Of a stretch of 64,000 nt of DNA, positions 50-13,556 are shown piece after piece. How positions within the stretch are numbered: the first letter of the stretch is position 1; every line of letters begins with the position of its first letter. The notes under the pieces are model-generated. The model did not search any database and was not told the DNA's origin. It saw only the letters and a program-made list of their open reading frames with translations. Position numbers and translations under genes: made by a program. The stretch comes from an uncultured Actinomycetota bacterium (GTDB lineage Bacteria > Actinomycetota > Actinomycetes > Mycobacteriales > Mycobacteriaceae): the NCBI GenBank assembly GCA_963787635.1, contig CAWBDP010000009.1, forward strand, positions 397,768 to 461,767. The letters are read 5' to 3'.

Positions 50-919
50 GTGCCGACCAATGAACAGCGACGTGCGTCAGCCAAGCGCAAACTCCAACGC
101 CAGCTGGAACGCCGCGCCCAGCAGGCTCGTCGGCGCCGGATCCTGACCCTGGCCGGCCTGGGGGTCGCGGTGGCCGTCGTGATCGCCGCAATCGTGACCA
201 CCGTGCTGATGACTGGCAATGACCACTCCAAGTCGACGCCGGCGGCCGCCTCGACGACGCCTTCGGATGCGGTGCCGCCGGCGCCGCCGTTGCCGTCGTT
301 CACGCCATCGGCCAACCTGGGCGCCAACTGCGAGTACCCGGCGTCCCCGGAGCCGGCCAGCAAGCCGGTGAATCCGCCGCGGACAGGCAAGGTGCCCACC
401 GACCCCGCCCAGATCAGTGTCAGCATGGTCACCGATCAGGGGAATATCGGTCTGCTGCTGGCCAACAACGAATCGCCGTGCACGGTCAACAGTTTCGCGA
501 GCCTGGTGGCACAAAAGTTTTTCGACAGCACCAGCTGCCATCGGCTGACGACGGCGCCGACGCTGAATGTGCTGCAGTGCGGTGATCCCAAGGCTGACGG
601 TCATGGTGGGCCGGGCTACCAGTTCGCCAACGAATATCCCAGCGACCAGTACAAGCCCGGCGATCCCGCGCTGGACCAGCCGGTCGTCTATCCGCGCGGC
701 ACCCTGGCGATGGCCAACTCCGGAGCCGACAGCAACGGCAGCCAGTTCTTCTTGGTGTACAAGGACTCTCAGCTACCGCCGCAGTACACCGTGTTCGGCA
801 AAATCCAAGACGACGGCCTGGCCACGTTGGACAAGATCGCCAAGGGCGGAGTCGCCGGCGGCGGTGACGACGGCGCACCTGCCATCAAGGTCACCATCAC
901 GTCGGTGCGTCTGGACTGA
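50..919 (+). CDS. ppiB: Cyclophilin-type peptidyl-prolyl cis-trans isomerase B, N-terminal membrane anchor (Rv2582 ortholog)
   Basis: Basic N-terminus MPTNEQRR followed by a TM helix; cyclophilin motifs CHRL..LQCGDP, GTLAMAN..NGSQFF and YTVFG; position next to relA. Confidence 0.93.
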   Translation: MPTNEQRRASAKRKLQRQLERRAQQARRRRILTLAGLGVAVAVVIAAIVTTVLMTGNDHSKSTPAAASTTPSDAVPPAPPLPSFTPSANLGANCEYPASPEPASKPVNPPRTGKVPTDPAQISVSMVTDQGNIGLLLANNESPCTVNSFASLVAQKFFDSTSCHRLTTAPTLNVLQCGDPKADGHGGPGYQFANEYPSDQYKPGDPALDQPVVYPRGTLAMANSGADSNGSQFFLVYKDSQLPPQYTVFGKIQDDGLATLDKIAKGGVAGGGDDGAPAIKVTITSVRLD

Positions 920-945: not shown

Positions 946-1767
946 GTGGACGAAATGACATTCGGGCGGCTCCGATTGATCACCGCGGCGGTGCTGGTGG
1001 CGGTCGCAGCGGTGGGCTGCGGGGCGATCACCAGTCGCCGCTCCACAACGACGACAACGCACACCTGGGATCGGACGACGACGCCGAGCGCCTTCGCGAC
1101 CACCCCGTCGGCGCCGATAGCCCCGGGCCTTGCGCCACTGCCCCCGTTCGTGCCATGCGCCGAGCTGGGCGCCAACTGTCAATATCCGCCGTCGTCGGAC
1201 CCAGCCGCCAAGCCGGTGTCGGCGCCGAGGTCAGGCAAGGTGCCGACGGACCCCGCCCAGGTCAGTGTCAGCATGGTCACCGACCAGGGCAATATCGGTC
1301 TGCTGCTGGCCAACAACGAATCGCCCTGCACGGTCAATAACTTCGTCAGCCTGGCCCAACAGAAGTTCTTCGACGACACCAGCTGTCACCGGCTGACCAC
1401 GTCACCGGGACTCAGCGTGCTGCAGTGCGGTGATCCTAAGGGCGACGGTAGCGGTGGACCGGGTTACCAGTTCGCCAACGAATATCCCAGCGACCAGTAC
1501 CAGACTGGCGACCCCGCGCTCGACCGGCCGGTCGTCTACCCGCGTGGCACCCTGGCGATGGCCAACGCCGGACCGAACACCAACGGCAGCCAGTTCTTCC
1601 TGGTGTACAAGGACTCTCAGCTACCGCCGCAGTACACCGTGTTCGGCAAAATCCAGCCCGACGGGCTGGCCACCCTGGACAAGATCGCCGCGGGCGGAGT
1701 CGCCGGCGGCGGCGGCGACGGCACACCCGCCACCAAAGTCACCATCACGTCGGTGCGCCTGGACTGA
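946..1767 (+). CDS. Second cyclophilin (ppiB paralog), probable lipoprotein with Thr-rich linker
   Basis: Catalytic domain nearly identical to 50..919. New N-terminus has a hydrophobic stretch ending AAVGC (lipobox-like) and then a Thr/Ser-rich linker. Confidence 0.88.
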   Translation: MDEMTFGRLRLITAAVLVAVAAVGCGAITSRRSTTTTTHTWDRTTTPSAFATTPSAPIAPGLAPLPPFVPCAELGANCQYPPSSDPAAKPVSAPRSGKVPTDPAQVSVSMVTDQGNIGLLLANNESPCTVNNFVSLAQQKFFDDTSCHRLTTSPGLSVLQCGDPKGDGSGGPGYQFANEYPSDQYQTGDPALDRPVVYPRGTLAMANAGPNTNGSQFFLVYKDSQLPPQYTVFGKIQPDGLATLDKIAAGGVAGGGGDGTPATKVTITSVRLD

Positions 1768-1795: not shown

Positions 1796-3795
1796 GTGGA
1801 AGAAACGACATTCGGGCGGTACCAGTTCTCGAGCTTCTGGGCCGCGGCGCCATGGGCGAAGTCTTCCGTGCGCACGACACTGCCACCGACCGGGTCGTCG
1901 CGATCAAACTGTTGCCGCCGCAGCTGGCCGAAAACCTGGCGTATTAAGCAGCGATTCCGCCGCGAAGCGCGCACGGTCGGCAGGGCTCAACGACCCACAC
2001 GTGGTGCCCATCCACGATTACGGCGAGATCGACGGCCGGCTCTACGTGGACATGCCGTTGATCGAAGGCCGCGACCTGAGCCACGCTGCATCACCGAGGG
2101 TGGCCGAATGCATCCCGCTGGGGCGGTCGCGATCATCGAACAGGTCGCCGCGGCGTTGGACAGCGCCCACCAGGTGGGGTTGGTCCACGGCGATGTCAAG
2201 CCGTCGAACATCCTGGTCGACGCGCGGGAATTCGTCTATGTGACCGATTTCGGGCTCGCCCGGCTCGCCGGCGGCCCCGCGACGGCGAACACTGGGCCCA
2301 CGGGGGGCACCCTGGCCTACATGGCACCCGAGCGCCTCAGCGGAACCACTGACCCTCCTCCGACGTGTATTCGCTGGCCTGTGTGCTGCACGAGTGCCTG
2401 ACCGGGCAACGGCCCCGCCCCGGTGACAGTCTCGAACAGCAGCTCACCGACCACTTCAGCGCCCCGCCGCCGCGACCGTCGGCCAGCTGCCCGGATCTCC
2501 CCCGGCATTCGACGCGGTCATCGCCCGCGGGATGGCCAAGGACCCCGCCGAGCGCTATCAGACCGCGACAGAACTGGCCGACGCCGCGCGTGCAGCGCTG
2601 ACCAACTCCTTCGGCGCGGCACCGCCGCCGCCCGGCCCCACCGAACACGCCATGTGGCCCTCCGCCCAACCCGGCACCATCGCCGCACCGGCGTATGCGG
2701 GATCGCTTGCGCCACCGTCGGTTCCGGTCCGCATCGGCCGCTATCTCTTGATGTTCCTGATTCTGGTGGTCAGCGGCTATCTGGTGATCACGCTTGTCGC
2801 CGGCCACCACCGCGCCCAGCCCGGCATCGACCAGCTCGGGGGTACCCGGATCACGCTGACGGCACGCACCTCCGACGGCTCACCGCCCACGCCCGGGGCG
2901 CTGTCTGCAAGCACAGCACACCATCAGCGCCCGGGCCAAGGGGCTGGGGATCTCGGATGCACAGGTCGTCATCGTGGGCGACAACATCGTCGTGACGGTG
3001 CCCGGCAATAACGCCGACGAAGCACGCAGTCTCAGCCAAACCGCCCGGTTCTACATCCGGCCGGTGATCCAGGCGGTCCCGGCGGGACCTGCCCCGACCG
3101 GCGGCCCGTCGCCGGCACCGACCCCGCCGACCGGTCAAAGCGTTGCCGAGCGCATCGCGATAGAACGGCAGTTGCGGCAGAGCACCAACAAGCGAATTCA
3201 GTACATCGCGCTGGAGTTACAGGCCAGCCGGTGCGACGAGGACGACGTGCTGGCCGGCAATGACGACCCCAGCCTGCCGCTGATCACCTGCTCGACCGAC
3301 CACAAAAGCGCCTACCTGCTGGCGCCGTCGACCATCAGCGGCGACCAGATCCAAGACGCCAGCTCGGGCCTCGACAGCCGCAGCGGCGGCTACGTCGTCG
3401 ACCTGCAGTTCAACGGGCCCGCGGCCAGCACCTGGGCCGACTACACCGCCGCCAACATCGGAACCCAGGTCGCATTCACGCTGGACACCCAAGTCGTCAG
3501 CGCACCGTATATCCGGGAAGCCATCCCGGGCGGACGAACCCAGATCACCGGCGGTGACCCGCCGTTCACCAAAGATTCCGCACGCCAGCTGGCCGACGTC
3601 CTCAATTACGGGCCGCTGCCATTGGCATTCGAACCATCAGCTGCTGAATCGGTCCCGCCGAAACCTGGTGCGGCGAAAACGGTTTCGACGTGGCTGCCGG
3701 CAGCACGGACAGCGGGTGCGGTCGGACTGCTGTTGGCACTGATCGGCGCGCTGGTGATCTTGTACCTTCCCCGGTTTCGCCGGCCGCGCGTCTAG
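1796..3795 (+). pseudogene. Ser/Thr protein kinase fused to SecD TM1-periplasmic-TM2 region; about 7 frameshifts (about 666 aa if repaired)
   Basis: Stitching frames gives GRGAMGEV, VAIK, HGDVKPSN, DFG, YMAPE and DVYSL..LTG. A TM helix follows, then [62 protein letters not shown] matching SecD at 9994..11805. Shifts near 1827, 1945, 1985, 2089, 2360, 2503 and 2910. Confidence 0.8.
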
Positions 3796-6230
3796 GCCGC
3801 GGAGGTAATCCGGTAGACGTCGTAGACACCTTCGACGTTGCGGACGACGTCGAGCAGATGGCCGAGGTGCTTGGGGTCGCCCATCTCGAAGGTGAACCGG
3901 CTGATCGCCACCCGGTCGCCCGACGTGGTCACCGACGCCGACAGGATGTTCACCTTCTCGTCGGCCAGCACGCGCGTCACGTCTGACAGCAGCCGGTGCC
4001 GGTCCAGCGCCTCGACCTGGATGGCCACCAGGAACACCGACGACGGTGACGGCGCCCAGTGCACCTCGATGATCCGCTCGGCCTGCTGTTGCAGGGATGC
4101 GGCGTTGGTGCAGTCGGTCTGGTGCACGCTGACCCCACCGCCACGGGTGACGAAGCCCATGATCTGGTCGCCGGGGACCGGTGTACAGCATTTCGCCAGC
4201 TTGGTCAGCACGCCCGGGGCGCCGGGAACCGCCACCCCAATGTCGTCGGTGCTGCGCTGGCGCCGCGGCATGGTGGTCGGAGTGGACCGCTCGGCGAGCT
4301 CCTCCTCGGCCTGGTCGATGCCGCCCAACTCGGCCAGCAGGCGCTGCACGACATGCCGCGCCGACGCATGCCCCTCACCGATCGCGGTGTACAGCGCGGA
4401 CACGTCAGCGTAGTGCAGTTCGTTGGCCACGGCGGCCATCGAACCGCCACTGACCAAGCGCTGCAACGGAAGTCCGCCGCGGCGTACCTCGCGGGCCATC
4501 GCCTCTTTGCCGGTCTCCAGCGCCTCCTCGCGCCGCTCCTTGGCGAACCACTGCCGGATCTTGGTCTTGGCGCGCGGTGACACCACGAACTGCTGCCAGT
4601 CCCGCGACGGCCCGGCGTTGGCTGCCTTCGACGTGAAAACCTCGACCAGTTCCCCGTTTTCCAGCTTGCGTTCCAGCGCCACCAGCCGGCCGTTGACCCG
4701 GGCGCCGATGCAGCGGTGGCCCACCTCGGTGTGCACCGCGTAGGCGAAGTCCACCGGTGTCGATCCGAGCGGCAGGGTGATCACGTCGCCCTTCGGGGTG
4801 AAGACGAAAATCTCCTGCACCGCGAGGTCGTAACGCAGCGACTCCAGGAACTCGCCCGGGTCGGCAGCCTCCCGCTGCCAGTCGAGCAGTTGACGCATCC
4901 AGGCCATGTCGTCGATCTCAGCAGCGGCTTGCAGATGCGGAATCCCGTTGCGGCCCTTGGCTTCTTTGTAGCGCCAGTGCGCAGCGATGCCGTACTCGGC
5001 GGTGCGGTGCATGTCGCGGGTGCGGATCTGCACCTCCAGCGGCTTGCCCTCCGGCCCGACGACGGTGGTGTGCAGCGACTGGTAGACACCGTATCTGGGC
5101 TGGGCGATGTAATCCTTGAACCGACCGGCTAACGGCTGCCACAGCGAATGCACCACGCCGACAGCGGCATAACAGTCGCGGATCTCGTCACACAGGATGC
5201 GGATACCGACCAGGTCGTGGATGTCGTCGAAGTCGCGGCCCTTGACGATCATCTTCTGGTAGATCGACCAGTAGTGCTTGGGGCGGCCCTCCACGGTCGC
5301 CTTGATCTTCGACGCGTTCAAGGTGGCGACGATCTCGGCGCGCACCTTGGCCAGATAGGTGTCCCGCGACGGCGCCCGGCCGGCCACCAGCCGGACGATT
5401 TCCTCGTATTTCTTGGGATGCAGGATGGCGAACGACAGATCCTCCAGCTCCCACTTTACCGTCGCCATACCGAGCCGATGCGCAAGCGGCGCAATAACTT
5501 CCAGTGTTTCGCGGGCCTTGCGGGCCTGCTTCTCCGGCGGCAGGAAGCGCATGGTCCGCATGTTGTGCAGCCGGTCGGCCACCTTGATCACCAGCACCCG
5601 CGGGTCGCGGGCCATCGCGATGATCATCTTGCGGATCGTCTCGCCCTCGGCCGCACTGCCCAGCACCACCCGGTCCAGCTTGGTCACGCCGTCGACGAGG
5701 TGGCCGACTTCTTCGCCGAACTCCTCGGACAGCGCCTCGAGCGTGTAGCCGGTGTCCTCGACGGTGTCGTGCAGCAGTGCGGCCACCAGCGTGGTGGTAT
5801 CCATGCCCAGCTCGGCCAGGATGTTGGCGACGGCCAGCGGGTGGGTGATGTAGGGATCTCCGGAGTGGCGCACCTGGCTGGCGTGCCGCTGATCGGCCAC
5901 GTCGTAGGCGCGCTGCAGGATCGACAGGTCGGCCTTGGGGTAGACCTCCCGGTGCACGCCCACCAGCGGTTCCAGCACCGGGTTGAGCGCGCTGCGCTGG
6001 GCGGTCATCCGGCGGGCCAGCCGGGCCCGGACCCGCCGCGACGCGCTGGTGGTGGTCTTGACGGTCTCCGAGCGCGGCGACGGTTCGGGCTCGGCCTCCG
6101 GAGCCTCGGTGCGAGGCTCGGTCTCCGCCGGCGGCTCGGTGCCCGGGTCGGTCTCCTGGAGCACGTCGGAGTCCGGCAGTTCTTCGGTGACCGGCTGCAC
6201 AGCTTGGGCCGTGCCCTGGTTGTCCGCCAC
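3792..6230 (-). CDS. relA: Bifunctional (p)ppGpp synthetase/hydrolase Rel
   Basis: HD motif (ALLHDTVED), synthetase, TGS and ACT domains. Start placed at GTG 6230 behind a GGAGG RBS (ORF track extends to 6239). Confidence 0.97.
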
Positions 6231-6296
6231 GTCCGTCACCTCCGACCTCGAGGATATCGCCTCGAGCCCCGTTTTCCCGCCTACGTCGTCCCTGGG

Positions 6297-6842
6297 CTAG
6301 ACGCGATGCAGGCTGCGGACCGGCAGCGGCTGCAGCAGTCCGCGGCCGCCCAGCGCCGTCAGCTCGAGCACTACCGCGGCCACCGGCACCGTGGCACCGC
6401 AGCGGTCCAGCAGCCGGTGCGCGGCGGCGAGGGTGCCGCCGGTGGCCAGCACGTCGTCGACGATGACGACGTTGCGTCCGGCCAACTCGATCCCGTCGGC
6501 GGGGATCTCCAGTGCGTCGCTGCCGTACTCCAGGTCGTAGGTCTGGGTGTGGACCGGCGGCGGCAACTTGCCCTTTTTCCGGATCGCCAGCACCCCGGTG
6601 CCGAGCCGGATGGCGACGGCGCCGGCAATCAGGAACCCGCGGGCGTCGATGCCGGCCACCAGGTCGGCTCCGGCGCAGATTTCGGCCAGCGAGCCGGCCA
6701 CCGCGGCCAGCCCCCGGGGGTCGGCGAACAGCGGGGTGAGGTCCTCGAACTGGACGCCGGGCGTGGGAAAGTCGGCCACTTCGCGGGTCAAGGACCCGAT
6801 CAGCTCAGCCAGCGCCGGGTCGGCTGAGTCGGCTGAGATCAC
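6297..6842 (-). CDS. apt: Adenine phosphoribosyltransferase
   Basis: [26 protein letters not shown] motif [12 protein letters not shown]; GTG start overlaps the upstream TGA. Confidence 0.95.
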
Positions 6843-8494
6843 CGCACCAGCACCCAGCGGTCCATGTTCCAACCGGCGCCCCAGCGCGTCGGGCTGGCCG
6901 TCACCGCGTACATCTTTTTCGACGTCACCAGGGTGCGCTGCTGGCGGTACAGCGGCAGCGTCGGCAGATCGCCCCACAGCACCGGGGCGCTCTGCCCGAG
7001 CAGGCGCACCTGTTCAGTCGGATCAGCGGATACGGCGAGCGCGCTGATGATCCCGTCGATCTGCCCGTTGTTGTAGCCGGCCAGGTTGTTGCCGTTGGCG
7101 CTGAACAGGTCATAGGCGTCCATCGCCGACGATCCGGTCGATCCGCTGCCGGTTGCGCCGCCGGTGCCGGCCAGCAGCACGTCGATCTTGCCGTCCCGCA
7201 GCGTCTGCGGGCCGACGGAGTCCGAGGTGACGTCGGAGACGGAGATCCCGGCCGGAGCGCAGGCTCTGGCGATGGCCCCGACAGTGGCGGCCAGCCGCGC
7301 GTTAGGCGCCCGGTAGCCGATCCGGATCGCCAACGGCTTGCCGGCCAGCACATCCCGGGCCGCATCCGGGCTAGAGCGGATGAACTGGGTGGCCTCAGGT
7401 GCGGCACCTTCGGCCTGCGCAACGGCATCCTCGCTGGTGGTATGCAGTCGCGTGTTGGCGATGGGCACCATGGCGTCGCGCGCGATCACGTCACGCGGCG
7501 TGCACAGCGACAATGCGCGCCGTGCGGGAGTCTGCGACAGCGGGCCGTGCGGAGCGAAGATCAGCTGCTCGATGCCCGCCGCCGGTGCATTGGTGAGCTG
7601 GTAGCTATCCGGGGTCAGCAGCGATCCCGACGACCCGGTGGCGACGTCGACGACGTCGACCGACTTGTTGTTGATCCGGTCCTGAATGTCGGCTGATTGC
7701 GGCCTCACTGTGATCCGTTTGGTGGCAGGCTTGGTCCCCCACCAGCGGTCGTTCGCGACGAGCACCACCGCCCCCCCGTCCAGGACCGAGTCGATCTTGT
7801 AGGGCCCCGAGGACGGGAAGTGCTTGGCGTCGAGGTTGGGTTTGAGATCCCAGGTCATGTTCCACAGTCGGGCGATCCGGTCCACCACCGGCATGTTGTT
7901 GCTCAGCAGCGCTCCGGTCACGTCGACGCCCAGCAGGTCGCCGATGACGTGCGACGGCATGATCGAGGTGGCGGTGAAAAGCTGGTTGTAGTCGACCACA
8001 CTGTGGTCCGGGGCAAACGAGATGCGCGCCTTCTTCTGCCCCGGCCGGCACTCCAGGTTCGCGATGTCGGCGTAGCCAGCGCGGCTGGCGGCGTCGAATC
8101 CGGGGAACCGCCCAGACTGGGCCGCCCAGGTCAGCACCAAATCATCGCAGGTCACCGGCTTGCCGTCGGAGTAGACGGCATTGTCGGCGATTTGGTAGTC
8201 CAAAACCAGCGGTGCGCCGCCGACCACTGAGATCGTGCCGAAGTCGTGGTCGGCGACAACCTGTCCGTCGGGTCCGTGGTAGCCGAAACCGGCGAGGGTG
8301 CGGGCGAAGGCCTGCGCGCCGGCCGATGCAGCTCCGTTGACGGTGTTGGCGTTGTAGGTGGACAGCGCCCCGTCCACCACGTAGTCGATCTGGCCGGCGG
8401 CGCTCCCGGAACACCCCGCGAACGCGGCGGGTCCTACTGCCGCCAGGGTGACCGCCAGCCAGGTGGGAGCCACGCGCCGACGCCAGGGGGCCAT
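6839..8494 (-). CDS. ABC transporter family-5 substrate-binding lipoprotein (Rv2585c-like)
   Basis: Signal peptide ending AFAGC; SGPYKI motif; lies between secF and apt; start trimmed to ATG 8494. Confidence 0.88.
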
Positions 8495-8498
8495 CGGG

Positions 8499-9989
8499 CT
8501 ACTGCCGGCCGATTTGTCGCTTGCCGGTGGGCCGCCGATGACGGCTGCTGGTGGGCCGCACCGGTCGTGCGCCCGGCGCCGGCTTGCTGGGAGCCACCAC
8601 GGTGTCCGCGGTGTCCGCCTCGGCCCCGGTGTGTCGCGGCTCGGGCACCCCAGCGTCGTCAGGGACTGTTTCGGCGGTCTTTTCGGTGGTCTTTTCAGCA
8701 GTCTTTTCCGGGGTCTTTTCAACGGTTTTTGCCGCAACCGTTCTGGACGCCGCCCTGCCGGAGGCCCTACTGGAGACCTTGTCGGTGCGCCTCCGGGAGC
8801 CTTTCCTGGCGCCCCGGCGGGAGCCGTTCTTGGCGGCCTTCCGGGAGACCCCGTCTTCTTCGGCGATTGCGGCGCCGGGGTTGCGGCGCCTGGTCACCCG
8901 CCGGGTGTGGGTGCGCACCAGCCCCGTGCGCTCACGCAGCGTGACCAGCAACGGGGTCGCGAAAAAGATCGACGAGTAGGTGCCGACGATGATTCCGACC
9001 AACTGCACCAGCGCCAGGTCTTTCAACGTGCCCACACCCAGCAGCCACACCGCCACCACCATCAGCGCCAGCACCGGCAGCACCGAGATCAGGCTCGTGT
9101 TGATCGAGCGCATGAAGGTCTGGTTGACCGCCAAGTTGGCCTGCTCGGCGAAGGTGCGCCGGGTGGTGTGCTGGAAGCCGTGGGTGTTCTCCTCGACCTT
9201 GTCGAACACGATGACGGTGTCGTAGAGGGAGAACCCCAGGATCGTCAGTAGCCCGATGACGGTGGCTGGGGTGACCTCGAAGCCGACCAGCGAGTAGACA
9301 CCTGCGGTGACGGTCAGGTCGAAGCACATGGTGGCCAGCGCGGACAAAGCCATGAAGAGCTCGTAGCGCACAAAAATGTAGAGGCCGACCAGGGCCACGA
9401 ACACAACCAGGGCGATCAGGGCTTTTTCGGTGATCTGACCGCCCCAGGTCTCCGACACCGCCGAGTCGCTGATGGCTTTCTTGTTGGGTTTGCCGTCCTG
9501 CGTGGGCTGGAACCGATCGAACAGCGCGTTCTTGAGCTTGGTGGTCTGGTCGTTGGTCAGCGTCTCCGAACGGATCTGCACCGTTGCCGAGCTGCCGCTG
9601 CCGACGATGACCACCGATTCGGGCTGCATGCCCAGGGTCTGTCGGAAGACGTCTTCGACCTGCGCGACCTGGGCCGAGCCTGTCGCGCCGACGACCGGCA
9701 TTGATACCTTGGTGCCGCCCTGGAAGTCGATCCCGAATGTGAACCCGCGAACGATGATGCTGATGATGGCGATGGCGACCATCGCCCCGCCGACGCCGTA
9801 CCAGAGCTTGCGCCGCCCTACCACCTCGAATGCGCCCGTGCCGGTGTAGAGCCGGGAGAAGAAGTTGTGGTGCGGCAGCCCCCCGGCCCCCTCGACGTCG
9901 TCGGCGTCCGGGACGGCTCCGGTGGTTTCGGTGAGCTCCTCGGCGTCGGTCGCTTCGTTGTCGGCGCTCGTGTTCGCTTTGGAAGCCAT
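8499..9989 (-). CDS. secF: Protein translocase subunit SecF with long basic C-terminal tail
   Basis: FGIDFQGGT, SLYDTVIVFDKVEEN, RSINTS motifs; start at ATG 9989. Confidence 0.96.
   Translation of the reverse strand: MASKANTSADNEATDAEELTETTGAVPDADDVEGAGGLPHHNFFSRLYTGTGAFEVVGRRKLWYGVGGAMVAIAIISIIVRGFTFGIDFQGGTKVSMPVVGATGSAQVAQVEDVFRQTLGMQPESVVIVGSGSSATVQIRSETLTNDQTTKLKNALFDRFQPTQDGKPNKKAISDSAVSETWGGQITEKALIALVVFVALVGLYIFVRYELFMALSALATMCFDLTVTAGVYSLVGFEVTPATVIGLLTILGFSLYDTVIVFDKVEENTHGFQHTTRRTFAEQANLAVNQTFMRSINTSLISVLPVLALMVVAVWLLGVGTLKDLALVQLVGIIVGTYSSIFFATPLLVTLRERTGLVRTHTRRVTRRRNPGAAIAEEDGVSRKAAKNGSRRGARKGSRRRTDKVSSRASGRAASRTVAAKTVEKTPEKTAEKTTEKTAETVPDDAGVPEPRHTGAEADTADTVVAPSKPAPGARPVRPTSSRHRRPTGKRQIGRQ
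8677..8736. repeat. 12-bp in-frame tandem repeat (gtcttttcNNNN x4-5) encoding EKT-X repeats in the SecF tail
   Basis: gtcttttcggtg / gtcttttcagca / gtcttttccggg / gtcttttcaacg / gtttttgccgca. Confidence 0.8.
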
Positions 9990-9993
9990 CTCG

Positions 9994-11805
9994 CTATCCC
10001 CGTCCCGCCGCAAGGGGCGCCGAGTGAGAAATTGCCCGCCGTTCGCGTGCGACTTGCTGGATGGCGCCCAGGCCGTTGTAGGCCGGCTTGGCCAGCCTTG
10101 TCGACTTCGACGCCAGATACACCAGCGGCCACGTCACCAGGAACACCACGACCAGGTCGAGGACCGTGGTCAGGCCCAGGGTGAAGGCGAACCCCTTCAC
10201 TTGCCCGATCGCCAGGATGTACAGCACCGCGGCCGCCAGGAACGTCACCGCGTTGCCCGAGATGATCGTCTTGCGGGCCCGCGCCCAACCGCGCGGAACC
10301 GCCGATCTGAACGATCGACCTTCGCGGATCTCGTCTTTGATGCGTTCGAAGAACACCACGAACGAGTCGGCGGTGGTGCCGATACCGATGATCAGACCGG
10401 CGATACCGGCCAGATCCAGGGTGTAGTTGATATATCGGCCCAACAGCACCAGGATCGCGAACACCATCGAGCCCGAAGCCACCAGCGACAACGCCGTCAG
10501 CAAGCCCAGCACCCGGTAGTACAGCAACGAGTACACCAGGACGAGCGCCAGACCGATGGCGCCGGCGATCATGCCGGCCCGCAGCGATGTCAATCCCAGT
10601 GTCGCCGAGACGGTTTCGGCTGACGACGACTCGAACGACAGTGGCAGCGACCCGTATTTCAAGACGTTGGCCAGCTGGCGTGCGCTAGCCGCCGTAAACG
10701 GTGGATCGCCGCCGGTGATCTGGGTCCGCCCGCCGGGGATGGCTTCCCGGATATATGGTGCGCTGACGACTTGGGAGTCCAGGGTGAACGCCGTCTGGAT
10801 CCCGACGTGGGCGGCGGTGTAGTCAGCCCAAGTATTGGTCGCGGACCCCTTGAACTGCAGGTCGACGACATAGCCGCCGCTGTGCTGGTCCAGACCCGAG
10901 CTGGCGTTTTGGATCTCCTCGCCGCTGATGATCGAGGGCGCCAGCAGATAGGCGGCCTTTTTGTCGGTCGAGCAGGTGATCAGCGGCAGGCTGGGGTCGT
11001 CGTTGCCGGCCAGCACGTCTTCCTGGTCGCACCGGCTGGCCTGTAACTCCAGCGCGATGTATTGGATTTGCCTGTTGGTGCTCTGCCGCAGCCTCTTTTC
11101 TATCGCGATGCGCTCGGCCAGTTCCTTGCGTGGATCCGGCAGCTCAGGTACGTCCGCGGGCGGCGCATCTGCCGCTGGCGGAGGCTGCTGTCCCGGCGTC
11201 GGCGTGGGCGGGGGTGTCGGCTCCAACGGGTAGGGGCGGGGCTGCGCCGGGGGTCGGCCGCTGGCCGGCGGCGCGGTAGTGGGTTCGGCGCCCGGGGATT
11301 CCGTCGGCTCGGCGCCCTGGCCGCCCGCCGGCGGTTCTTCGGCCGGCCCGGGCGGGGCTCCTGGCGGCCGCTGGGGACGTCGTTGCGGCCGGGGCAGGCC
11401 CGCCCCTTCCGGCGGAGCGGCCTGCGCCGGCACCGCCTGGATCACCGGCCGGATGAAGAGCTTCGCCGTCTGACCCAGGCTTTTGGCGTCGTCGCCGTTG
11501 CTTCCCGGCACAGTTATGACCAGGTTGTCGCCGTCGATGATGACTTCCGAGCCGGAAACACCCAGCCCGTTGACCCGGTCGCTGATGATCTGCTGCGCGC
11601 GAGACAGGGCATCGCGGCTCGGGCTGGAACCATCCGGCGTCCGCGCGGTCAGGGTGACGCGGGTACCGCCCTGCAGGTCGATGCCGAGCTTGGGGGTGGC
11701 CCGCTTGTCCCCGGTCAGAAACACCAGCAGGTAGACGCCAATGAGCAGGGCCAGAAACACCGACAGATACCGGGCAGGGTGCACCGGCGCCGAAGGCGAT
11801 GCCAC
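9994..11805 (-). CDS. secD: Protein translocase subunit SecD
   Basis: [38 protein letters not shown]; six-TM layout with a Pro-rich periplasmic insert. Confidence 0.96.
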
Positions 11806-11875
11806 GTTGTTGAGTCTCCTCGCTTGCGGGTCAGTTCGACTGCACCGGGAAAGGGTACGTGCCGTGCGGCAGACC

Positions 11876-12256
11876 TCAGTCTTTGGGCAGTCGTTCCGGG
11901 CCGCCGGCGGTCAATCGGTCCGGGTCGGCGACGAGCCCGACGTCCTCGCCGTCGACCTCGTCGGCCACCTCCATCACCTCGGGCTGCAGGTCCGTGGTCT
12001 CGATGCGGTCCCGGATTGCCAGCTTCATCCAGGTGGTCACCACACCGGGCGCGATCTCGAGGTTCACGTTGTCGTCGGTGATGTTGGTGATGGTCCCCTC
12101 CAGGCCGGAGGTGGTATGCACCCGGTCGCCGATCCGCAGCGACTCGTGCAGGTCAATGGTGGCTTGCATGGCGCGCTTTTGTTTGCGCGCACTGAAAAAC
12201 ATGAGCGCCGCGAAGCCGACGAGGAGTGGCAAGAAGAGTAAGGATTGGCTAGTCAC
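11876..12256 (-). CDS. yajC: Preprotein translocase subunit YajC
   Basis: TM helix then [28 protein letters not shown]; upstream of secD; start GTG 12256 inferred. Confidence 0.92.
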
Positions 12257-12380
12257 GGGGGCAACGATCTTTCGTGTGGGTCTCGGGATTGGCACTGGAC
12301 CGGGCGGGCCGCCGGCCCGCATAACTCCCTAGTGTGCCATTCCGCCGCTCGGCACCCCTCGGCAACGTCGATCGCAGACC

Positions 12381-13556
12381 TTGACGGAGCAGTGCGACCA
12401 TGAGACAACGAGCGATGTGAGTCGCATCATCGATTCAGATCAGCACCTCTATGAGAGCCGTTGGCTGTGGGCCGAATACTGCGACCCGGATGTGCGCCAC
12501 GAGGCGATCACCCTCGTCGACGACGACCTCGGGTATACCTGGCTGACCTGGCGCGACGCTCGCCTCGGGTTGGCCGACGTCCACCTTCCCGGCGACACGG
12601 CCTCCTGCGGGGACCACCGCATGCGCCGACGGGCAGGTAAGCCGCCCTCCTACCGCTACGACGACGCGTTGCCCACTTCCTATTGGGAACCCGCCGCACG
12701 CCTGCGGTGGCTCGACGATGCCGATCTCGATGAGGCGGTCGTGTTCCCCAACTTCGGCCTGCTGTGGGAACGCCGGCTGTCGTCGTCGCTTTCGGCGATG
12801 ACCGCCAACATGACGGCATGGAACCGGTGGTGCGCAGCGGTGCAAGCCGAGGGCCGGGGACGACTGCATCCCGTCGCACACCTGACATTGCGCGACCGAA
12901 AGTGGCTGCAGGCCCAGCTGGATTCGCTTGCGGCGGCGGGTATCACGCTGGCAATGATCGGCGCCGGACCCGTGGACGGGCGGCAGCTTTCGCACCCTGA
13001 TCACGACCCGATTTGGTCCGCGTTTGTCGACCATGCCATTACACCGGTGTTCCACGTCGCCGATCAGGTGCGGGTCTTCGACGATTGCTGGTACGCCGAC
13101 GACCCGATGGACGATCTGGTGCCTGCCACCGAAGCGGTGTTTTTGTGGGTGCCTCCGGCGCTGGCGTTGACCGACCTGATCCTGCACGGCGTCTTCGACC
13201 GCCATCCCCGGCTGAACTTCGGCGTAGTAGAACTGAGCTCCGCCTGGGTGCCGCAATTTCTGCTGATGCTGGACGGCGCGTCGGATTTCACCACTCGCCT
13301 CAACGGAAAACCGGTGGCACAGCTGTCCCGGCGACCGAGCGAGTACTTCCTCGACCACGTTCGGGTGTCCTCCTTCTCCTATGAAGACCCCAAGCAGCTG
13401 GCCGAGATGTCCGGCGACGTGTTCATGTTCTGCAGCGACTATCCCCACTCCGAGGGCACCGCGACGCCGCTGGACGATTACCGGCGGATGGGCTGCGCGG
13501 AGCCCGAGATGCCCGGTCTCTTCCACAGCAACATCGACTTGCTGCTGCATCGGTAG
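12381..13556 (+). CDS. Amidohydrolase_2 family metal-dependent hydrolase/decarboxylase
   Basis: IIDSDQHLYE, PVFHV and FCSDYPHSEG motifs; start may be GTG 12417. Confidence 0.82.
   Translation: MTEQCDHETTSDVSRIIDSDQHLYESRWLWAEYCDPDVRHEAITLVDDDLGYTWLTWRDARLGLADVHLPGDTASCGDHRMRRRAGKPPSYRYDDALPTSYWEPAARLRWLDDADLDEAVVFPNFGLLWERRLSSSLSAMTANMTAWNRWCAAVQAEGRGRLHPVAHLTLRDRKWLQAQLDSLAAAGITLAMIGAGPVDGRQLSHPDHDPIWSAFVDHAITPVFHVADQVRVFDDCWYADDPMDDLVPATEAVFLWVPPALALTDLILHGVFDRHPRLNFGVVELSSAWVPQFLLMLDGASDFTTRLNGKPVAQLSRRPSEYFLDHVRVSSFSYEDPKQLAEMSGDVFMFCSDYPHSEGTATPLDDYRRMGCAEPEMPGLFHSNIDLLLHR

Follow-up and report, generated by a model that had tools for sequence, protein, structure and literature searches.

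For most bacterial receptor Ser/Thr kinases, we know of no signal. One design is illustrated by the PknB/PASTA kinases, in which the sensor module is also found in the housekeeping machinery that it supposedly monitors, PASTA being present both in penicillin-binding proteins (PBPs) and in PknB. Preproteins that emerge from the translocon are captured by the P1 head of SecDF, which is moved by the transmembrane (TM) bundle (structures 3AQP, 5XAN and 5YHF). MviN/MurJ (Rv3910) of M. tuberculosis associates an envelope-biogenesis membrane protein with a degenerate kinase domain. The sensor of the M. tuberculosis kinase PknE (Rv1743) is a homologue of the envelope protein-folding catalyst DsbG (PMC1847690). 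We analysed a window of 64,000 nucleotides from an uncultured bacterium of the Mycobacteriaceae (assembly GCA_963787635.1, contig CAWBDP010000009.1, positions 397,768 to 461,767), in which a frameshifted gene at 1796-3795 has the confirmed architecture of a Hanks Ser/Thr kinase followed by a proline-rich linker and a copied TM1-P1-TM2 module of SecD. The best explanation of our results, quite a probable one when taken as a whole, is that this gene is a pseudogene belonging to a small, uncharacterised group of mycobacterial receptor Ser/Thr kinases, which use the first third of SecD as a sensor hairpin.

The kinase half is PknE/PknD-like and closest to PknE. When the folds of solved structures are searched with a full-length model of P0099 (P, G and L hereafter designate intact proteins, genomes and loci, and G000 the genome under study), the closest kinase fold is that of PknE (2H34; 52% identity, TM-score of 0.90 normalised to the target). 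Both are receptor Ser/Thr kinases of N-in topology, and one member of the group, P0133, has a DsbA-like Thioredoxin_4 domain. PknE has, however, a single TM helix and a DsbG-like sensor, whereas the present system is characterised by a two-TM SecD hairpin (TM1-P1-TM2), by its location in the slot between ppiB and relA and, in the window, by a frameshifted copy. The ectodomain half is related to SecD of SecDF (T. thermophilus 3AQP/3AQO/5YHF; D. radiodurans 5XAN/5XAM/5XAP) by homologous TM1, P1 base, P1 head and TM2, but the window copy has lost TM3-6, the proton-relay segment and any fused or adjacent SecF, and it has gained an N-terminal kinase; the long proline-rich insert between base and head of mycobacterial SecD is also shortened. 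The design logic is the same as that of the PASTA kinases, with the difference that PASTA binds peptidoglycan fragments, whereas the module derives here from the protein-export machinery, its head apparently still exchanging sequence with the donor gene. MviN/MurJ can be compared with the half of the family that has a short kinase, including P0143 (see below), although the transporter and the domain order are different; MviN recruits FhaA through its pseudokinase, itself a target of phosphorylation, and no such thing is known here.

In the window copy, the listing of open reading frames (ORFs) and three-frame translation show kinase pieces spread over all three frames, followed by one open frame of 273 codons (2974-3795). 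Seven single-base changes, i.e., four deletions and three insertions placed against intact homologues, restore one frame of 666 codons. Compared with intact P0017, this read-through protein shows 62% identity across 91% of its length (E 1.7e-233); in the alignment with the intact members (A1), it is colinear with them all the way from the start of the gene, first codons included, to the basic tail. Pfam Pkinase (PF00069) is matched by the pieces 2102-2401 (E 4.1e-17) and 1780-1947 (E 3e-4), and the motifs GRGAMGEV, VAIK, RFRREA, HGDVKPSN, DFG and APE are all present. Translation, Pfam and alignment A1 thus reproduce the seven shifts, the length of about 666 residues and the order from kinase to tail that had been read in a preliminary description of this DNA; its kinase motifs are also found, with Gly in place of the Arg of HRD. 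This HRD to HGD replacement (about 2186-2194) concerns an Arg that is invariant in 19 intact members; as non-RD kinases can be active, it is by itself not decisive. No uninterrupted frame runs through the kinase domain, since six changes lie inside it, pending confirmation of the assembly.

The SecD origin of the ectodomain is supported both by sequence and by predicted structure. When compared by BLASTP with the SecD of the same genome, the head is 72% identical, and the match runs through TM2 and ends at residue 428 of 603. The AlphaFold model of ORF 2974-3795 has a mean pLDDT of 84; all nine Protein Data Bank (PDB) chains that it matches at E <= 0.001 are SecDF, the next fold match is the SecD chain of the holotranslocon, and the PDB sequence matches of the ectodomain are SecDF only. 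The P0099 full-length model (mean pLDDT 84.9) is confident in both halves, with a disordered linker; its fold search is swamped by kinase matches, SecDF being visible only with the separate model of ORF 2974-3795. The ORF stops nine codons past TM2 and hence does not contain the TM3-6 bundle. Neither the window copy nor the 21 clusters of intact homologues described below match the corresponding profile (PF02355, SecD_SecF), with the sole exception of P0143 in G319, and BLASTP against the own SecD reveals in the window copy no counterpart of the SecD segment at about residues 477-491. Nor is a SecF partner fused or adjacent to the gene: the next gene is relA, which is convergent and whose stop overlaps the 3' end of the pseudogene by 4 nucleotides. 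As judged from its sequence, the window copy, lacking both TM3-6 and the proton-relay segment, cannot be a subunit of a translocase driven by the proton-motive force. The earlier proposals that the protein stops where SecD TM2 ends and that it is not a translocase are in agreement with these results.

A search by the read-through protein retrieves intact proteins, forming 21 clusters at 90% identity, of 581-1003 residues and with both Pkinase and SecDF_P1_head. They come only from Mycobacterium, Mycolicibacterium, Mycolicibacter or soil metagenomes, and are labelled in databases either as 'protein translocase subunit SecD' or as 'protein kinase domain-containing protein'. The whole profile is spanned by three representatives of a library of 1.84 billion proteins (50% identity), and the family is therefore small; among about 400 species genomes of the genus, intact copies are found in three (G272, G300 and G319). 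The usual form of the gene, to which the window copy conforms, encodes kinase, linker, TM1, P1, TM2 and a short tail (about 580-700 residues). Of the eight loci examined, seven have this gene in the ppiB-relA slot, at a distance of a few kb from secDF and mostly in tandem with a sister kinase that has a cyclophilin ectodomain; the divergent P0137 of M. komossense lies outside. The gene order is ppiB, kinase-cyclophilin, kinase-SecD-P1 and relA in L021, L022 and L038; two kinase-cyclophilin genes precede kinase-SecD-P1 in L128; kinase-SecD-P1 is followed by a kinase with a beta-propeller in L129/L130; and L023 contains a kinase-SecD(full)-cyclophilin gene.

Pairwise dN/dS ratios (NG86) between five intact genes are 0.17-0.40 for the kinase, 0.24-0.54 for the P1 head, 0.40-0.89 for TM1 plus base, and about 0.5-1.3 for the linker and tail of most pairs. 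As far as these ratios can tell, the kinase and the head of intact members are under purifying selection. The existence of intact orthologs with dN/dS below 1 had been set beforehand as a test, and they are indeed found in other mycobacteria, for both the kinase and the head. No paper characterising SecD-kinase or cyclophilin-kinase architectures was found in the literature; the preliminary description likewise knew of none for the kinase-SecD design.

Two sets of observations weigh against a receptor kinase function common to the whole family. In 10 of the 21 members, the activation loop, APE and part of the C-lobe are missing, and the Pfam match ends at about profile position 146-149. In A1, these deletions appear in a sub-clade (P0098, P0124-P0128, P0134 and P0136) at columns of about 170-195 and 224-238 and remove the activation loop, the P+1 loop and APE as well as a second stretch of roughly 15 residues; P0134 has GFG for DFG, and both P0134 and P0136 have HRDxN for HRDxK. 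The long-type members retain a TxTGxTVGT activation loop. The short-kinase members are likely pseudokinases that keep the SecD ectodomain and, as about half of the family is without an activation loop, reporting by a kinase cannot be the universal mechanism. Moreover, stand-alone TM1-P1-TM2 genes without kinase occur in the ppiB-relA slot (L067, 7825-8742, + strand) and elsewhere (L026 of G097, 7318-8496, - strand), which suggests that the ectodomain may act alone. L067 had also been considered, together with L057, as the same pseudogene with shared frameshifts; this is ruled out, L067 being P1-only and L057 a head fragment, with no kinase remnant. More generally, the content of the slot is highly variable between genomes, as seen from the synteny of 80 loci.

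The SecD part of these proteins is a mosaic. The tree of TM1 and the N-terminal P1 base unites the housekeeping SecDs in a single clade (98% ultrafast bootstrap), from which all fusions, including the pseudogene, are excluded; a two-residue deletion after TM1 is common to the fusions. In the tree of the head, fusions appear at several places between the SecDs: the pseudogene joins its own SecD (94%), G272/P0023/P0017/P0122 the SecD of G272 (91%), and P0135/P0137 a further SecD (88%). To force the fusion heads into a monophyletic group costs 75 log-likelihood units, and such a group is rejected (approximately unbiased test, p = 0.024). At the nucleotide level, 3145-3664 is 84.2% identical, without gaps, to the own secD (blastn), which is located 6-7 kb away in inverted orientation. 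The dS of the pseudogene head is 0.35 to the own secD and 0.54-0.93 to other sequences, orthologous secDs being at 0.61-0.67 from each other. These data are most simply read as one old fusion, after which the head repeatedly underwent gene conversion with the resident secD as donor. Repeated independent capture of the SecD part would be less parsimonious, because kinase, linker, TM1 and base are all shared. Of the initial idea of a copied SecD sensor, the SecD-derived module is retained, but a single copying event is not: the head appears to have been re-homogenised repeatedly with the resident secD. With this base/head mosaic, nature offers a clean illustration of gene conversion linking an essential gene to its domain-shuffled paralogue. 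Independently, a second full-length SecD paralogue is found away from the secDF operon in L024 (8403-10133; G280) and in L025 (7617-9278; G349).

A tree of 88 distinct kinase domains (FastTree; supports not inspected) places all SecD-P1 kinases and all kinase-cyclophilin fusions, the two types being interleaved, in one clade that is distinct from 32 intact kinases of G000 as well as from PknD types. Within this clade, the ectodomain is a cyclophilin, SecD P1, a beta-propeller, or SecD P1 with a DsbA-like thioredoxin. The latter is represented by P0133 (847 residues), in which a short kinase and SecD P1 precede the DsbA-like domain. P0143 (L023 8199-11210, + strand; G319, Mycobacterium sp. pUA109; 1003 residues) has a short kinase, SecD P1, TM3-6 and a C-terminal cyclophilin, its residues 545-706 being 44% identical to SecD TM3-6. 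The kinase-cyclophilin fusions are sister paralogues, with the same clade and slot and with an ectodomain copied from the neighbouring ppiB; they differ in that their peptidyl-prolyl isomerase (PPIase) domain lies behind a single TM helix instead of a SecD hairpin. Intact kinase-cyclophilin genes are present in L021 (10312-12024, - strand), L022 (5075-6913, + strand), L004 of G003 (862-2646, - strand), L006 of G008 (592-2376, - strand), L029 (M. colombiense) and L049 (M. sherrisii), and in many metagenome-assembled genomes (MAGs) too. In the 80 loci surveyed, this type is intact in nine versus one for the SecD type, and it is apparently uncharacterised too. Three tandem slot-type kinases (602-620 residues) adjoin secD in G010:C12, at about 7900-12600 (L002, L017).

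The partner domains, i.e., prolyl isomerase, disulfide oxidoreductase and SecD head, are all, by homology, extracytoplasmic protein-biogenesis modules. One tentative possibility, to which we give clearly less than even chances, is that the ppiB-relA slot is a hot-spot where a kinase lineage repeatedly gains a sensor from a neighbouring factor of envelope protein biogenesis (cyclophilin PpiB, SecD P1 or a DsbA-like thioredoxin), conversion keeping the SecD head matched to the functional SecD, and where the kinase competes with the machinery for its unfolded exported clients and thereby reads the load on export and folding. If true, this would amount to a 'mimic-of-the-machine' sensing of secretion stress, comparable to that of PASTA for the cell wall.

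Concerning the state of the window copy, seven frame changes in one gene could reflect either decay or an assembly artefact. The copy is most probably a pseudogene whose function appears lost, because the shifts are dense, the flanks are clean, invariant residues are altered, the dN/dS of the head is raised and no other member of the clade exists in this genome. All seven shifts indeed fall within the first 1.1 kb, at about 60 times the background of the assembly, which was measured by placing 94 conserved ORFs of the complete relative G005 on this genome. At this background, seven shifts or more in 2 kb have a Poisson probability of about 4e-9, and there is no shift in roughly 10 kb of flanking genes. 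Among the 93 columns that are invariant in the 19 intact members, four are altered in the window copy, all in the kinase and including the HRD Arg. On the branch of the pseudogene head, three-point decomposition gives a dN/dS of 0.44-0.71, as compared with 0.16-0.22 on that of secD, and the 32 intact kinases of G000 included in the kinase tree all fall outside the slot clade. Programmed frameshifting is ruled out by seven shifts of both signs without slippery sites. As the gene is most likely a pseudogene, nothing would be sensed here, and the working sensor first envisaged for this genome is not retained. Several points nevertheless weigh against decay, and would fit a gene that is intact in the living organism, the seven changes being consensus errors of a noisy, probably long-read, metagenome assembly in a strain-variable slot. 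The background itself amounts to 14 frame switches in 125.7 kb, about one per 9 kb, with 12 of the 94 genes split, and 9 of the 52 other kinase-domain loci of the genome are also split by frame switches. G000 consists of 18 contigs and 5.03 Mb at 92% completeness, and its nearest public relatives are long-read soil MAGs. The slot varies greatly in content between genomes, and the gene has no in-frame nonsense substitution besides an indel-made TAA. Furthermore, no independent copy of the allele is available: the exact protein of ORF 2974-3795 was not found, and a 31-mer over the HGD codons is absent from metagenome and genome contig collections. Finally, the 3' 890 nucleotides are shift-free, which would have a probability of about 0.016 if the shifts were evenly distributed; gene conversion at a dS of 0.35 explains this absence only in part, and it is a loose end. 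Some or all of the shifts could accordingly be consensus errors, and caution is called for with every individual frameshift of this assembly. Homopolymers do not discriminate between the two explanations, as neither the seven sites, of which one lies in a C5 run, nor the background switches are tied to homopolymers. An intact gene is nevertheless unlikely in view of the local density, the clean flanks, the mixture of insertions and deletions, the four altered kinase residues and the raised dN/dS of the head branch. As a separate observation, G000 has about 53 kinase-domain loci, roughly five times the number of M. tuberculosis, and ten of them are split.

If the gene is decayed, it could in principle never have been functional, i.e., result from a one-off joining of a kinase gene and a secD fragment. 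The proximity of secD (6-7 kb) and the 84% nucleotide identity of the head to it are in agreement with such a dead-on-arrival product, which had been raised at the outset, but intact syntenic homologues refute it: at least 21 protein clusters have this architecture and this junction in intact form, with the same slot in seven loci, the kinase and head are apparently under purifying selection, and TM1/base belong to a separate old lineage common to all fusions. We thus give it practically no weight. It is somewhat less improbable, while still very unlikely, that the kinase half is dispensable and that the working unit is a membrane-anchored SecD-P1 module, acting as an accessory export or holdase factor, of which the survivor in the window would be a relic. 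The P1-only genes of L067 and L026, the truncated kinase of half of the family and the location of six of the seven shifts outside the ectodomain all fit this possibility. However, the shift at about 2907, between TM1 and head, leaves no single-frame TM1-P1-TM2 protein, ORF 2974-3795 has neither TM1 nor any signal sequence, and the long-type kinase domains are the most constrained part (dN/dS 0.17-0.27). Decay of a kinase-SecD-P1 gene that is intact elsewhere is the reading that we retain.

For the intact members, a mechanism can be proposed from that of SecD. The topology would follow SecD, with the kinase inside, TM1, P1 outside, TM2 and the tail inside. As the TM bundle is missing, the head could bind but could not be powered. 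A SecD-type head would bind unfolded exported polypeptides, or dock at SecF/SecYEG. Occupancy by clients or clustering of hairpins could then lead to N-lobe dimerisation and trans-autophosphorylation, as is typical of PknB, PknD and PknE, and the protein would thereby sense the load on export or folding. In members with a short kinase, the SecD module would act through a pseudokinase scaffold. Clustering by a ligand or partner is the model that we prefer, and docking, in which the hairpin would put the kinase at SecF/SecYEG, is its main mechanistic rival. The company of partner domains described above supports the putative role in sensing secretion or folding load.

The features of the locus are collected in Table 1. 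In M. tuberculosis, the region from ppiB to secD is that of Rv2582-Rv2587c; in the window, additional genes separate ppiB from relA. At the position of the kinase-cyclophilin gene of G272 and G300, this genome has only a kinase-less cyclophilin, which is a further point in favour of decay; this gene could be a kinase-cyclophilin gene minus its kinase or result from a 5'-end swap. Its product starts with MDEMTFGR and the kinase with MEETTFGR, about 16 nucleotides upstream and the first codons being duplicated (930-975 versus 1780-1825); 234-944 and about 1079-1794 form an 83% tandem repeat. Past these first codons, the signal peptide of the second cyclophilin is similar to that of the lipoprotein-type second cyclophilins of other mycobacteria (L043, L052 and L072).

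Table 1. Position of the genes, domains and frame changes in the window.
Feature	Position	Strand	Remarks
ppiB, membrane-anchored cyclophilin; upstream border of the slot	50-919	+	Pfam Pro_isomerase; synteny in 80 loci
Second cyclophilin gene	946-1767	+	Pfam; 83% tandem duplicate; where intact relatives have the kinase-cyclophilin fusion
Kinase-SecD-P1 gene (probable pseudogene), whole	1796-3795	+	~666 codons once the seven frame changes are corrected
Hanks-type Ser/Thr kinase domain	1814-2600	+	Over three frames; Pfam Pkinase, A1; holds six of the seven changes
Frame change 1	about 1826		minus 1
Frame change 2	about 1945-1948		plus 1; creates TAA
Frame change 3	about 1984		plus 1
Frame change 4	about 2091		minus 1
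Frame change 5	about 2352-2359		minus 1
Frame change 6	about 2499-2505		minus 1; in C run
Frame change 7	about 2907		plus 1
Pro/Ala-rich juxtamembrane linker	2601-2741	+	Translation; matching region of P0099 model with low pLDDT (residues 275-296)
TM1 (YLLMFLILVVSGYLVITLVAG), homologous to SecD TM1	2742-2804	+	Base alignment; P0099 model helix 298-325
N-terminal part of SecD P1 base and short Pro-rich spacer	2805-3135	+	61% identity to own SecD residues 69-134; holds the seventh change
SecD P1 head and returning base strand	3136-3639	+	SecDF_P1_head PF22599, E 1.2e-26 (ORF 2974-3795); zero frame changes
TM2, homologous to SecD TM2	3709-3768	+	BLASTP to SecD residues 406-428; model helix 243-268
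Short basic cytoplasmic tail (PRFRRPRV) and stop	3769-3795	+	ORF listing
relA, intact; downstream border of the slot	3792-6239	-	88-90% identity to RelA of relatives
apt	6297-6977	-	ORF listing/annotation
Solute-binding lipoprotein	6839-8737	-	ORF listing/annotation
secF	8499-10013	-	True pair with secD at 8499-11805
Resident housekeeping secD, 603 aa	9994-11805	-	10599-11118 likely donor of head sequence

At the level of this genome, the locus records the loss of the kinase-SecD-P1 system, or an assembly problem. The local copy is thus of more modest interest, and the value of the finding lies mainly at the family level, with its slot, its swappable ectodomains and its conversion with secD. 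The ancestry of the sensor names a candidate class of ligands, the unfolded exported polypeptides, or a candidate docking partner, SecF/SecYEG. To our knowledge, actinobacteria do not have the classical Cpx and sigma-E systems. The sister domains and the SecD head point to an undescribed branch of phospho-signalling, which would monitor envelope export and folding in these bacteria. As the family is present in the culturable species Mycolicibacterium komossense and Mycolicibacter minnesotensis, this idea is directly testable.

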